Under the pieces are notes generated by a model that ran no database searches, was not told where the DNA came from, and saw only the letters and a program-made list of their open reading frames with translations. DNA of 5,298 bases, from positions 1 through 5,298 of the IMG/VR virus record IMGVR_UViG_2534681626_000009; one strand, given 5' to 3'. The position numbers were made by a program, and so were the translations under genes. This DNA comes from a virus (lineage: Duplodnaviria; Heunggongvirae; Uroviricota; Caudoviricetes). Every line of letters begins with the position of its first letter. The stretch's first letter is position 1. Shown here one piece after another: positions 1-5,298 of this stretch.

Positions 1-717
1 ACTATCACTGAAATTAATACGCCAACCCGTGGCTGGGTTTCGGTAACTAATCCTGCTGCGGCTACTGTTGGCTCTCCGGCAGAAACTGATGCTGAGTTAC
101 GTATCCGCCAGTCGCAAAGTGTTGCGTTGCCATCAATAACCCCATTTGAAGCACTGGATGGTGCTGTTTCTAATGTTACCGGTGTAACCCGCCACAAACT
201 CTATGAAAACGATACTGGTTCGGAGGACGGTAACGGGTTACCGCCACACTCTGTTGCTGTAATTGTGGATGGCGGTGATGTGACGGATATTGCTCAGGCT
301 ATTAGAGGGAATAAAGGCCAGGGGACAGCCACTCACGGTAGAACATCCGTTACGGTTCCGGATAAATACGGCAATCCCCATGTAATCAAATTCTCGCGTT
401 CCAGTGATGTACCTGTTTATGCCCGGATTAAATTAAAAGTTTTTACGGGTTATACCTCACAGATAGGGCAGCAGATCCAGCAGGCTATTTCCGACTATAT
501 CAATAGTCTGATGATTGGTGATTCGGTCCTTTTAAGTCGCATTTACTCACCGGCGAATCTTGGCGTGGTGAGTGGCGGGAATGCACGCTATTACGATATT
601 CAGGAACTGACGATTGGGAAATCCCCGGGGGCTTTGTCGTCATCAAACATTGATATCAGATACAACGAATCTGCGTCCTGTACACCGGAAAATATCGTTA
701 TAACGGTGGAGTCATGA
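1..717 (+). CDS. Baseplate J-like protein (P2 gpJ / Mu gp47 family), C-terminal portion; 5' end lies outside the window
   Basis: The reading frame is open from base 1 with no stop until TGA at 715-717; the ORF track starts at a TTG at 127 only because the window truncates the gene. Family assignment is from gene order (immediately upstream of a tail protein I gene and a tail-fibre gene) and general resemblance, not a search. The stop overlaps the next start as ATGA at 714-717. Confidence 0.7.
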   Translation, partial: TITEINTPTRGWVSVTNPAAATVGSPAETDAELRIRQSQSVALPSITPFEALDGAVSNVTGVTRHKLYENDTGSEDGNGLPPHSVAVIVDGGDVTDIAQAIRGNKGQGTATHGRTSVTVPDKYGNPHVIKFSRSSDVPVYARIKLKVFTGYTSQIGQQIQQAISDYINSLMIGDSVLLSRIYSPANLGVVSGGNARYYDIQELTIGKSPGALSSSNIDIRYNESASCTPENIVITVES

Positions 718-1394
718 GCAAATACACCGAACTGATCACGAACTACCACGCCACCAAACCTAAATTTCTTGCACATGTTGATCTGATGACCCGGCCGCTT
801 ATTGATGTTGCGGCTGCCACCAGAGGGCTGATTACTGCATTTGATATTGACTCTGCGGTTGGTGTGCAACTTGACATTCTTGGATTGTGGATCGGACGTA
901 GCCGTGTTGTCAGCCAGCCTATCTCAGGTGTCTATTTCAGCTGGGATACCGACGGGCTTGGATATGATCATGGTGTATGGCAGGGGCCATACGATCCTGA
1001 TTCCGGATACATGTACCTCAGCGATGAAACTTATCGTGTCATCCTTAAAGCGAAGATTGCGATTAATAACTGGGACGGACGGAATGATTCGCTTCCAGCA
1101 ATTCTTGACGCGGCGACAGCAGGATCCGGACTGCGAATGCAGATAGTCGATAACCAGGACATGACGATATCGGTCTGGCTCTTTCCTGATACTGATATTT
1201 CAGATGTATCGCGTGAGTTAATTGCTGCAATTAAACAGGGATATCTCACAGTAAAAGCCGCCGGGGTTTGGGCGGGTGGCATTGAAACACCTTCGGTGGA
1301 AACTCCATCGGAAGGTTCAAAATTTTTTGGTTTTGATATGGATAACGAATTCATCAGTGGTTTTGATGTAGGGGCATGGGGAGTATTACTCTGA
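714..1394 (+). CDS. Phage tail protein I (P2 gpI / Mu gp48-like baseplate-tail-fibre connector)
   Basis: 226-aa ORF sitting between the J-like gene and the tail-fibre gene, the conserved J-I-H order of P2/Mu-type baseplate modules. Start ATG overlaps the upstream stop (ATGA); stop TGA at 1392-1394 overlaps the next start (TGATG). Confidence 0.75.
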   Translation: MSKYTELITNYHATKPKFLAHVDLMTRPLIDVAAATRGLITAFDIDSAVGVQLDILGLWIGRSRVVSQPISGVYFSWDTDGLGYDHGVWQGPYDPDSGYMYLSDETYRVILKAKIAINNWDGRNDSLPAILDAATAGSGLRMQIVDNQDMTISVWLFPDTDISDVSRELIAAIKQGYLTVKAAGVWAGGIETPSVETPSEGSKFFGFDMDNEFISGFDVGAWGVLL

Positions 1395-2026
1395 TGGCGA
1401 AAAATGACTTTAAAGCGTTTGCAACTGATCGGAATGCCAATGTTATGTCGCAGGAGGAATGGGAAGCGTTGCCTGCGCTTTTATCCGGATTTACAGCAGG
1501 GAAAGCATCCAGTGCGCAAGTCAATAAGGTTATTCGGCAGGCCAGCTTTATTGCTGCAGCTCTGGCCCAGTTTGTAAGTGACAAAACGCAACGGGATGTG
1601 CTTGATAATGGTGATCTGCCCGGTTTTGTTGAATTGCTGGGATCGGGGTTTGCTGTTGAATACCTGAGCCGCAAGAATCCGTTTGGTGATATCAAATCGG
1701 ATGGCGCGGTGAAAACGGCTCTCGAAAACCTTGGTTTGGGAGAAGGTGCTAACTGGGTTATGTTACCTGGAGGAATGATAATTCAGCGTGTTTATCTTGG
1801 ATTTCCTGTCGGCACCAATGTAAGACACATAACTTTCCCCCGGTCGTTTACAACAACGAACTATTCAATCTCAATTAACTGGAATGATATCGGTACTGCA
1901 ACAACTGAAACACAATCTCCAGCAAATGTGGCGGTTGTTCATCAAACAAAATCATTAACAGGGGCCAGCATCTGGCAGGCAGGTCCCGGGGGATTTAATG
2001 TGGACATTATAGCGGTGGGGGATTGA
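1394..2026 (+). CDS. stfP: Tail fibre protein: constant N-terminal region (to about 1747) fused to variable C-terminal receptor-binding module A
   Basis: I placed the start at ATG 1394 rather than the track's 1376 because of the TGATG overlap with the upstream stop and a GGGGAG about 12 nt upstream. The N-terminal portion (118 aa from this start, 124 aa from the track start) is identical to the N-terminus of the reverse-strand ORF 3030..3905, and the two diverge exactly at the crossover site. The symbol is tentative, based on order and size matching e14 stfP as I recall it (about 209 aa). Confidence 0.75.
1719..1744. other. Site-specific recombination crossover site, hix/gix/cix/pix-like (left site)
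   Basis: The sequence CTCTCGAAAACC-TT-GGTTTGGGAGAA has imperfect dyad symmetry (9 of 12 positions per half) around a central TT at 1731-1732. It carries the GAAAACC..GGTTT core that I recall from Hin/Gin/Cin/Pin sites (hixL from memory: TTCTTGAAAACCAAGGTTTTTGATAA). It sits exactly where the two tail-fibre variants diverge. Confidence 0.7.
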
Positions 2027-2027
2027 T

Positions 2028-2456
2028 ATGTACGTATGGAGCGCTAAAGCAAATGGCTTTTTCCCCATAGCGGAGAAAGAAAAATTTGAGGCATCAGGTA
2101 TGTGGCCTGATGATGGTGTAATAGTCAGTGAAGAAGAACATAAAAAGTTATTTATGGATATTCCACCAGGAAAACAGATTGGAACACAGAATGGAAAACC
2201 AGCACTGATAGATATTCCTCAGCCGACCAAAAAGGAATTAATCGCTATTGCTGAAGTTAAAAAATCCCAATTACGGGAAAAAGCTGACAGTGAAATATCC
2301 TGGCGTCAGGATGCTGTTGATGCTGATATCGCAACTGATGAAGAAACTTCAACTCTCACCGAATGGAAGAAATACCGTGTGCTGCTGATGCGTGTTGATA
2401 CTTCAACAGCACCCGATATTGAATGGCCTACGCCTCCGGCAGTTCAGGCCAGATGA
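2028..2456 (+). CDS. tfaP: Tail fibre assembly protein (Tfa / Mu U-like chaperone) for module A
   Basis: 142-aa ORF starting 1 nt after the tail-fibre stop (TGA-T-ATG) with GGGG about 8 nt upstream. The C-terminal motif [11 protein letters not shown] is shared with the convergent partner ORF. Position directly after a tail-fibre variable region is typical of Tfa genes. Symbol tentative. Confidence 0.75.
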
Positions 2457-3033
2457 CATCCGGCGCGGTGCTGGTATCTGTTACCGTCACCGCGTCAATG
2501 TAATCCAGCACGGCGTTAAGTCGGGTTGTTTCTGCCTGCGTCAGCTTCCGCCCGGCCTGTAATTTCAGTTGAATCAGACTGATGGAAGCCATTGCAGTAT
2601 CCATCAGCGACTGGCGCTGTGCTTCTGCTGCATCTACTGCGGCGCTATGCTGTGCCTCGGTATCCGTCACCCATTTCTCACCATTCCATTTATCGTATGG
2701 CGTTAACGGGGCGATAGTGGTTGTATTATCAGGGTAATCCCCCGGAGCTGTGATTTCTTTTGATTCTCCCGTTTCGGTGTTATAGACAACTTCACCGCGA
2801 TGATCTGGCACATATTCCCATGAGTTAAAATCTGCCGAACGGCAGATTGCATAACCAGCCTTATGTGTGCCAGGAGCATCTAAACAGGAATATGCGGGGA
2901 TACCGACACCCACAGCAAGATATTCAATTGATGCAGAAATATACTCCCGTGTCTCACTGTCATAGTTATAAACGGTAATCTCTCCTGCCTTTGTGGCAAT
3001 AAATTTATTATTTAAGATGGCGTTATACATCAT
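2428..3033 (-). CDS. tfaE: Tail fibre assembly protein (Tfa / Mu U'-like chaperone) for module B
   Basis: 201-aa ORF on the minus strand whose start overlaps the stop of the upstream minus-strand tail-fibre ORF (ATGA at 3030-3033). C-terminal motif [11 protein letters not shown]. It is convergent with the plus-strand Tfa gene and overlaps it by 29 bp (2428..2456). Symbol tentative, from the size match to e14 tfaE (about 200 aa). Confidence 0.75.
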
Positions 3034-3905
3034 GCAGCCCTCACAATGTAATTAAATGAAATATTACGTGGGCGTGTCTCTGCTGCACCGACAATACTGG
3101 TACTCAACCCCGTTGCCGTTCGTTTGTTATTTTTATTTCCTTCAATCAAACAGTTGTAATCATCATTACCAATTAACGAATTGGTGGCATCAATACTGTC
3201 CGGGGACAAGGCATTAGTTGTGGAACTTAAAGTCAGCATCTCGTCTGAACTTGGAAGATTTTTTAATGGTGTTTCATTGCGTGAAATACCCGCGTAAAAA
3301 AAGGACTCATGCCTGTGAGCTTCAAAAGAGTCATCCTGAAGACTTAGCAAGGCTCGCCCCGCATCCACTCCACGTCCATCATCCCAGCCACGAATAAATT
3401 CACCGCGTAAATCAGGCAATTTATTGGTCGGGTAAGCCTTTGCCAGTTCCGGGTATTCTTCAGCAGAAAAAGCCGCACCATTGCATTTCAGCCAGCCTGT
3501 TGGCGGAGTGGCTGAAGGCCACGGAACAGGGACACCAACAGGTAATGCAGAGCCTTCTCCCAAACCAAGGTTTTCGAGAGCCGTTTTCACCGCGCCATCC
3601 GATTTGATATCACCAAACGGATTCTTGCGGCTCAGGTATTCAACAGCAAACCCCGATCCCAGCAATTCAACAAAACCGGGCAGATCACCATTATCAAGCA
3701 CATCCCGTTGCGTTTTGTCACTTACAAACTGGGCCAGAGCTGCAGCAATAAAGCTGGCCTGCCGAATAACCTTATTGACTTGCGCACTGGATGCTTTCCC
3801 TGCTGTAAATCCGGATAAAAGCGCAGGCAACGCTTCCCATTCCTCCTGCGACATAACATTGGCATTCCGATCAGTTGCAAACGCTTTAAAGTCATTTTTC
3901 GCCAT
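3030..3905 (-). CDS. stfE: Tail fibre protein: same constant N-terminal region fused to alternative variable C-terminal module B (carries the conserved tail-fibre tip motif)
   Basis: Minus-strand ORF whose N-terminal portion is identical to that of 1394..2026, followed by a different 173-aa C-terminus containing [10 protein letters not shown]...YPELAKAYP...[17 protein letters not shown], which I recognise as the conserved motif of T-even gp37 / lambda Stf / Mu S / P2 H fibre tips. Start chosen at the mirror of 1394. Symbol tentative. Confidence 0.7.
3555..3580. other. Site-specific recombination crossover site, hix/gix/cix/pix-like (right site, inverted orientation)
   Basis: TTCTCCCAAACC-AA-GGTTTTCGAGAG is the exact reverse complement of the left site. 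The inverted orientation is what invertase-mediated inversion, rather than deletion, requires. Confidence 0.7.
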
Positions 3906-4585
3906 CAGAGTAATACTCCCCATGCCCCTACATCAAAACCACTGATGAATTCGTTATCCATATCAAAACCAAAAAATTTTGAACCTTCCGATGGAGTTTC
4001 CACCGAAGGTGTTTCAATGCCACCCGCCCAAACCCCGGCGGCTTTTACTGTGAGATATCCCTGTTTAATTGCAGCAATTAACTCACGCGATACATCTGAA
4101 ATATCAGTATCAGGAAAGAGCCAGACCGATATCGTCATGTCCTGGTTATCGACTATCTGCATTCGCAGTCCGGATCCTGCTGTCGCCGCGTCAAGAATTG
4201 CTGGAAGCGAATCATTCCGTCCGTCCCAGTTATTAATCGCAATCTTCGCTTTAAGGATGACACGATAAGTTTCATCGCTGAGGTACATGTATCCGGAATC
4301 AGGATCGTATGGCCCCTGCCATACACCATGATCATATCCAAGCCCGTCGGTATCCCAGCTGAAATAGACACCTGAGATAGGCTGGCTGACAACACGGCTA
4401 CGTCCGATCCACAATCCAAGAATGTCAAGTTGCACACCAACCGCAGAGTCAATATCAAATGCAGTAATCAGCCCTCTGGTGGCAGCCGCAACATCAATAA
4501 GCGGCCGGGTCATCAGATCAACATGTGCAAGAAATTTAGGTTTGGTGGCGTGGTAGTTCGTGATCAGTTCGGTGTATTTGCTCAT
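3905..4585 (-). CDS. Phage tail protein I, mirrored second copy (identical to 714..1394)
   Basis: Translation is identical to the plus-strand copy and it lies in the right inverted-repeat arm. Whether this is a real second copy or an assembly fold-back is uncertain. Confidence 0.55.
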
Positions 4586-5298
4586 GACTCCACCGTTATA
4601 ACGATATTTTCCGGTGTACAGGACGCAGATTCGTTGTATCTGATATCAATGTTTGATGACGACAAAGCCCCCGGGGATTTCCCAATCGTCAGTTCCTGAA
4701 TATCGTAATAGCGTGCATTCCCGCCACTCACCACGCCAAGATTCGCCGGTGAGTAAATGCGACTTAAAAGGACCGAATCACCAATCATCAGACTATTGAT
4801 ATAGTCGGAAATAGCCTGCTGGATCTGCTGCCCTATCTGTGAGGTATAACCCGTAAAAACTTTTAATTTAATCCGGGCATAAACAGGTACATCACTGGAA
4901 CGCGAGAATTTGATTACATGGGGATTGCCGTATTTATCCGGAACCGTAACGGATGTTCTACCGTGAGTGGCTGTCCCCTGGCCTTTATTCCCTCTAATAG
5001 CCTGAGCAATATCCGTCACATCACCGCCATCCACAATTACAGCAACAGAGTGTGGCGGTAACCCGTTACCGTCCTCCGAACCAGTATCGTTTTCATAGAG
5101 TTTGTGGCGGGTTACACCGGTAACATTAGAAACAGCACCATCCAGTGCTTCAAATGGGGTTATTGATGGCAACGCAACACTTTGCGACTGGCGGATACGT
5201 AACTCAGCATCAGTTTCTGCCGGAGAGCCAACAGTAGCCGCAGCAGGATTAGTTACCGAAACCCAGCCACGGGTTGGCGTATTAATTTCAGTGATAGT
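4582..5298 (-). CDS. Baseplate J-like protein, mirrored second copy (identical to 1..717); 5' end outside the window
   Basis: Reverse complement of 1..717, with the frame open to the window edge. Same uncertainty as the other mirrored copy. Confidence 0.55.
   Translation of the reverse strand, partial: TITEINTPTRGWVSVTNPAAATVGSPAETDAELRIRQSQSVALPSITPFEALDGAVSNVTGVTRHKLYENDTGSEDGNGLPPHSVAVIVDGGDVTDIAQAIRGNKGQGTATHGRTSVTVPDKYGNPHVIKFSRSSDVPVYARIKLKVFTGYTSQIGQQIQQAISDYINSLMIGDSVLLSRIYSPANLGVVSGGNARYYDIQELTIGKSPGALSSSNIDIRYNESASCTPENIVITVES

Follow-up and report, generated by a model that had tools for sequence, protein, structure and literature searches.

The stretch of DNA analysed here, referred to as the window, comprises the 5,298 nucleotides of the Caudoviricetes record IMGVR_UViG_2534681626_000009 and coincides with the entire contig APYR01000052.1 of the draft assembly GCA_000358795.2. 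Its two arms (1-1746 and 3553-5298) are 100% reverse-complementary and reach both contig ends, and its non-palindromic centre is exactly 1747-3552, the interval in which an original prediction, made from the sequence alone, had placed two alternative receptor-binding modules of a tail fibre, unrelated in size and motif content. The lengths and motifs quoted for these modules are correct, but both ends of the interval lie one base off the codon phase, the modules being in frame at 1748-2026 and 3030-3551. Read from the left, the centre holds module A (1748-2026, plus strand, ANWVMLPGG...NVDIIAVGD), a tip of 92 amino acids, and the gene of its cognate tail fibre assembly protein, TfaA (2028..2456, plus strand, 142 amino acids); these are followed, on the minus strand, by the gene of a second such protein, TfaB (2428..3033, 201 amino acids, or 200 when counted from the second Met, the start used by gene callers), and by its partner, module B (3030-3551), a tip of 173 amino acids. 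The constant N-terminal part of the fibre (1394..1746, plus strand) enters from the left arm, and its C-terminal end is encoded by a 26-bp Pin-type crossover site (1719..1744), of which a mirror copy lies at 3555..3580. The best explanation of the whole, to which we give a probability of about 0.85, is an e14-type invertible segment carrying two unrelated fibre tips, each with its own Tfa, on a chimeric contig.

On its own, module A matches the Pfam family Gp53-like_C (PF21882) with 26.6 bits against a gathering cut-off of 24.9, and the whole 216-residue fibre A falls just under this cut-off, with 23.0 bits. All eight trimmed members of the module A clade match the same family (best E=7.8e-12), and membership appears borderline for module A itself and solid for its clade. 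As a single sequence module A has no match in the PDB, and the profile of its clade reaches the R1 pyocin fibre 6CXB weakly (E=0.012). The predicted structure, a monomer model, is a jellyroll that superposes on 4MTM and 6CXB, and the comparison values are 10.0 for the R1 pyocin foot (6CXB), 9.9 for AP22 gp53 (4MTM), 9.5 for the R2 pyocin fibres (6CU2, 6CL6), 8.6 for discoidin I and 8.0 for Helix pomatia agglutinin. Profile search and structure prediction, the two checks that had been suggested for module A, have thus given a family other than that of module B and a lectin-like jellyroll, respectively. The R-type pyocin feet (6CXB, 6CL5, 6CL6, 6CU2) and AP22 gp53 (4MTM) belong to the same Gp53-like_C family, the pyocin foot being described as a lectin jellyroll of the discoidin type, with distal loops that probably bind lipopolysaccharide sugars (PMC6363177). 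Whereas typical members of the family have the motif IQWG, the small, divergent clade of module A has IQRG. When 1.84 billion representative proteins were searched exhaustively with HMMER, only 18 clusters emerged, a few of them at 37-52% identity; a word-indexed homologue search returned only sequences at least 80% identical, and the remoter relatives came from the exhaustive search. Among complete E. coli genomes, module A is carried by 112 of 5426, and most of the matches listed for these 112 already bear the RefSeq label 'gp53-like domain-containing protein'. Among gp53-like tips, module A is a rare and divergent subtype.

Module B has a different affiliation. It matches the Pfam family Collar (PF07484) with 57.4 bits (cut-off 24) and, in the PDB, the short tail fibre 9CUY (E=1.3e-18), T4 gp37 (2XGF, E=5.5e-17) and T4 gp12 (1OCY, E=3.9e-6). 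The Collar and gp37 matches are too strong to be put down to chance. The alignment with 2XGF covers the collar (residues 1-83) and the C-terminal strand returning to it (residues 151-173), the latter matched to ...NIAFNYIVRLA of 2XGF, and the only HxH motif, H79-R-H81 (HRH), is aligned to H-S-H of gp37. Collar, first HxH and returning strand are thus shared with the T4 gp37 tip and with gp12 (1OCY, 5IV5). Between the two collar segments, at about residues 84-150, module B has a variable insert of some 67 amino acids, whereas about 117 amino acids separate the matched segments in 2XGF, and in gp37 the long stretch forms a multi-HxH needle and a head (PMC6363177). With its single HxH and its short insert in place of a long multi-HxH needle, module B is, as far as homology can tell, a collar tip of the T4 gp37/gp12 type and not a gp37 orthologue. 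The chaperones also differ, module B being paired with a protein of the Tfa type while T4 gp37 requires gp57A and gp38 (PMC9608196). The fold of module B is assigned here from homology to solved structures; its AlphaFold model, built from near-identical sequences alone (120 listed homologues, 98-100% identical over the module), has a low predicted local distance difference test score, 30.6.

The two modules show no detectable relationship to each other. BLASTP of A against B gives E=1.5, and a profile-profile comparison (hhalign) of the module A clade with a small module B profile gives a probability of 0.2%; as had been stated, module A has none of the motifs of module B. On a rival reading, module A would be a truncated or degenerate form within the tip family of module B, and the switch would toggle between two alleles of one fold. 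This reading could draw on the shorter length of module A (92 against 173 amino acids) and on the ...LGLGEG junction through which both modules are attached to one and the same constant part. In view of these two comparisons and of the different Pfam families we reject, as far as such comparisons can tell, a truncated module B, and we regard the one-fold reading as hardly credible. The claim that the switch offers two structurally distinct tips is supported by the same evidence, and the profile comparison gave nothing to suggest that module A is a shortened relative of module B.

The middle of module B is itself variable. Over 3072-3358, corresponding to about residues 65-160, the DNA has no similarity to the locus L001 (a complete genome) or to stfE of E. 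coli K-12, while the collar flanks are 90-95% identical; at the protein level, the first 61 amino acids of module B and StfE are identical, the insert is divergent, and the StfE motif is also HxH (HAH). This pattern reads as a second, nested swappable cassette, which probably sets specificity.

Each module is followed by its own Tfa of different length, as originally described. Both proteins are well over the cut-off of the Caudo_TAP family (PF02413), TfaA with 118 bits (E=3.4e-34) and TfaB with 111 bits (E=5e-32), and they resemble each other only in the C-terminal 64 amino acids (36% identity), a region which in TfaA matches the Tfa of phage Mu (5YVQ_B, E=1.2e-6). The association of tip and chaperone recurs in the window, in the locus L002 and in K-12, where gp53-like tips adjoin a short Tfa of 137-146 amino acids, 33-45% identical to TfaA (45% in L002, 33% for K-12 TfaP), and collar tips adjoin 200-residue proteins of the TfaE type, 89-91% identical to TfaB (89.5% for K-12 TfaE). 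Comparison of the window with L002 shows module A replaced together with the N-terminal part of TfaA, as a single block (1753-2393), with flanks 94-99.7% identical. In the Tfa design described previously, a variable N-terminal domain binds the tip and a conserved C-terminal domain oligomerizes (PMC9608196); the one-block exchange fits this design. The tip-binding N-terminal domains of TfaA and TfaB are unrelated, in keeping with two different tip folds. We infer that each Tfa is dedicated to its tip, and this is well supported by the sequences. The tfa genes converge and share 29 nt in antisense (2428-2456), and the same overlap is annotated in K-12 e14 (L003 4518-4546), L001 (6428-6456) and L002 (6517-6545). 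The last 16 amino acids of the short Tfa are identical in the window, K-12 and L002, the remainder being only 33-45% identical.

The crossover sites have a 12-2-12 organization, are inverted with respect to each other and share the central dinucleotide TT. The left sites of K-12 e14 and L006 are identical to the one at 1719..1744, CTCTCGAAAACC-TT-GGTTTGGGAGAA, which contains the 16-bp core TTGGTTTGGGAGAAGG, reported as the inverted repeat of the e14 P segment (PMC12529663). Because the two ends agree in their inner 16 bp, the actual exchange has to be placed at the central TT (1731-1732), which precedes 1747 by 15 nt. Each natural locus has one site of this constant-side version and one of an invertase-side version, TTTTCATAAACG-TT-GGTTTGGGAGAA, the latter at the place that corresponds to 3555..3580. 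In the window both copies are of the constant-side version, and the invertase-side version found in L001, L002, L003 and L006 is absent from it.

In complete E. coli genomes the natural order is baseplate J, DUF2612, fibre, Tfa, a second Tfa on the opposite strand, a promoterless tip and pinE. A pinE gene, or a gene with Resolvase and HTH_7 domains, lies directly beyond the right-hand site in L001, L002, L003 and L006-L010, and in L011 there is likewise pinE/resolvase DNA beyond the site. Both orientations of the segment occur in nature, in different genomes: L001 carries the same cassette (96% identical) with module A joined to the constant part (A-ON), while L006-L011 are in the opposite state (B-ON), and sister assemblies carry an identical 291-residue fibre B followed by the resolvase. 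The constant part of the fibre is 99.7% identical to that of L002 and 100% identical to that of L006, up to 1746-1752, and three genomes matched a query spanning the junction of module A with this constant region over 80% or more of its length. When its centre is flipped, the window differs from L006, one of the sister assemblies, at four of 3552 bases. Three of these differences (3531, 3534 and 3540) cluster within 10 nt where module B begins, immediately interior to the crossover site, and are all synonymous, since the 291-residue products are identical. A further variable position is base 2021, in the last codon of module A, where the window has G (...AVGD) and L006 has T (TAT, Tyr); L001 and most relatives also end in Y, and the window thus has either a unique Tyr-to-Asp change at a conserved C-terminal residue or a sequencing error.

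Copies of module A that are 97-99% identical also occur on at least four unrelated N-terminal shafts (P0141-P0145), one of them e14-like and another, with a repeated motif, which we take to be like P2 gpH. The junction is always ...LG(L/F)GEG followed by ANW and is encoded by the crossover site, which therefore also serves as a seam for the exchange of tips between phages. In P0153, a protein of 122 amino acids, a gp53-like tip is cut after about 70 residues and fused directly to the conserved Tfa C-terminus, which looks like a deletion joining tip to chaperone.

The window itself unites the constant-to-A junction of one state with the constant-to-B junction of the other, the latter formed by the reverse-complement copy of 1-1746 (3553..5298, minus strand), which is most likely an assembly artefact. 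In accordance with the layout of the sister assemblies, the near-identity to flipped L006 and the A-ON locus L001, the mirror symmetry is most likely that of an assembly chimera of both inversion states and not a biological feature. Neither the list of open reading frames (ORFs) nor the Pfam search gave a serine invertase gene within the window, as follows from the chimeric nature of the contig. The simplest cause would be a culture holding both orientations, given that the real repeat is only about 20 bp, and clonal E. coli K-12 cultures are known to contain both orientations of e14 (PMC4272514). Alternatively, the perfect inverted repeat of 1746 nt could be real, the baseplate and fibre region being duplicated in inverted orientation on either side of the segment, so that both fibres would be driven by promoters and made together, with no switch. 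The deposited contig does have this structure. However, both arms stop at the same base at the two contig ends, as is typical of an assembler retracing its entry path; every other locus examined has a resolvase beyond the right-hand site, among them sister assemblies from the same project in which the 291-residue fibre is identical; the flipped window is almost the same as L006; the exact 210-residue A-ON product is on record in this contig only; and the coexistence of both e14 orientations in clonal cultures offers a ready source for a chimera. An inverted duplication is, on these grounds, very unlikely, and for the same reasons we reject the idea that the 1746-nt repeat is a biological long inverted repeat like that of P1.

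Taking as observed the order of the genes and their domain families, the absence of a relationship between A and B, the site sequence and the occurrence of both orientations in different genomes, we propose that the window centre is an e14-type 'P segment', a cassette inverted within the prophage of a temperate E. coli myovirus. A serine invertase of the Pin family, encoded just past the right-hand site in natural loci, would recombine the two inverted 26-bp sites at the central TT. The tail-fibre gene contains the left site, and inversion would therefore fuse the constant N-terminus (~118-124 amino acids) either to the gp53-like, R-pyocin-foot-like lectin jellyroll of 92 amino acids or to the T4 gp37/gp12-type collar of 173 amino acids, with its one HxH and its variable insert. 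A Tfa gene after each tip would allow the same late transcript to yield the tip and the matching chaperone, the copy adjoining the invertase having no promoter of its own. Inversion would be expected to be active in the strain and the Tfa proteins to be specific to their tips, and a sugar-binding, lectin-type foot and a gp37/gp12-type tip would be expected to bind different receptors. A promoter and terminator scan of 1300-3999 found fewer sites than in shuffled sequences, and it gives no indication of an internal promoter in this interval, nor of a terminator where the two tfa genes converge.

The pairing of two unrelated tips on a flip switch is already known and ordinary. The closest known system is the P segment of K-12 e14 (Plasterk and van de Putte 1985, as cited in PMC4272514; see also PMC12529663), which has the same order, stfP-tfaP-tfaE-stfE-pinE, an identical 26-bp constant-side site with the same core, and the same pairing of tip families, StfP matching Gp53-like_C with 58.7 bits and StfE matching Collar with 57.4 bits. 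To these likenesses can be added the 29-nt Tfa overlap, the 89.5% identity of TfaE to TfaB and the shared start of StfE and module B. On the other hand, the gene upstream is of the DUF2313 family (YmfQ) in e14 and of the DUF2612 family here, and the constant parts are alike over the last ~86 nt only; pairwise BLASTP of module A with the StfP tip (E=2.5) detects no similarity, so that their kinship is at family level only; TfaP is distant from TfaA and the collar-tip inserts are divergent; and e14 is a remnant, whereas the prophage here has a complete tail module. The gp53-like domain had also been pointed out before, in an StfP-derived chimera (PMC12529663).

In the case of the G segment of phage Mu (S/U, S'/U', Gin), the constant N-terminus likewise lies outside and two opposed C-termini lie inside, each followed by a Tfa (Caudo_TAP), and the serine invertase Gin adjoins the segment. 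The Mu variable parts also differ in their domains, with Gp34_trimer in S (Sv) and gp37_C in S' (Sv'), and are weakly similar over the first ~78 amino acids. They are, however, far longer than those of the window (334 and 318 amino acids), searched against Pfam they have no Gp53-like_C or Collar match at E<=0.1, and the exact 16-bp core of e14 was not found in Mu. The C segment of phage P1, with its invertase Cin, is related to the Mu G segment, and in systems of the Hin/Gin type the Fis-dependent recombination enhancer sits within the invertase gene, which the window lacks. As both e14 and Mu pair unrelated tips, such pairing is a normal property of these switches.

As a close relative of the e14 P segment, the locus carries little weight as a discovery. 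Both tip families and the Tfa family are already in Pfam, and RefSeq has labelled the products as gp53-like domain-containing protein, 'phage tail protein' and 'tail fiber assembly protein'. The points peculiar to the window are the rare, divergent gp53-like module A and the palindromic assembly-chimera contig. What the comparison documents is a routine pairing, in switches of the e14 type, of a lectin-like foot with a tip of the collar type, each accompanied by its matching chaperone, which can help in engineering the host range of phages and tailocins. It also carries a warning, in that a palindromic contig centred on an invertible segment is an assembly chimera and, at the same time, a sign that the sequenced culture contained both orientations.

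A different purpose for the element has been considered on the model of K-12 e14, namely that it serves the host, a short invertase-side product blocking the adsorption of other phages and the two tips acting as two receptor masks. In e14, StfE2, which combines the invertase-side leader with the gp53-like module of StfP, blocks T2 adsorption (PMC12529663). An equivalent ORF of 111 amino acids (an 18-residue leader plus module A) is called in L006-L010, and its protein cluster (P0002) has 543 member sequences. However, a full baseplate and tail module flanks the segment in L006 and L008, and a 42.7-kb record of the same family has been deposited as a phage genome, which makes ordinary host-range switching the simpler account; the expression of this ORF is hypothetical. 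We consider the host-serving reading unlikely, although it is compatible with an e14-type switch of two unrelated tips. It is quite unlikely that the host uses the tips for defence, instead of or besides phage host range, through an expressed invertase-side leader joined to the silent tip; if it did, tips differing in fold would mean that each orientation guards against a different set of phages.

Upstream of the segment, the constant region begins with the C-terminal part of a baseplate J/gp47 gene (1..717, plus strand), an in-frame ORF that runs off the contig end; in L001 and L002 this DNA bears the annotation 'baseplate J/gp47 family protein', and in L006 it carries PF04865. It is followed by a DUF2612/Phage_Wedge1 baseplate wedge gene (714..1394, plus strand; PF11041, E=2.8e-46). 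The fibre gene has two candidate starts, an ATG at 1376, giving a constant part of 124 amino acids, and a second ATG at 1394, giving ~118. Gene callers use the second, and in look-ups of the exact products there was no record of the 216- and 297-residue ORFs from 1376, whereas the 210- and 291-residue fibres from 1394 are on record; translation probably starts at 1394.

Directly past the invertase, at the prophage end, L006-L008 (9017-11827) encode a 936-residue protein with a SIR2_2 domain, cut short in L009, which may be an anti-phage defence cargo gene. Finally, L012 (ON470588.1, vB_EcoM-611R5), deposited as a 42.7-kb phage genome, has a constant region 97% identical and a matching layout of fibre, two tfa genes, tip and invertase. 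As the host gene yfhH lies at its end, this record may represent a predicted prophage region rather than packaged DNA.

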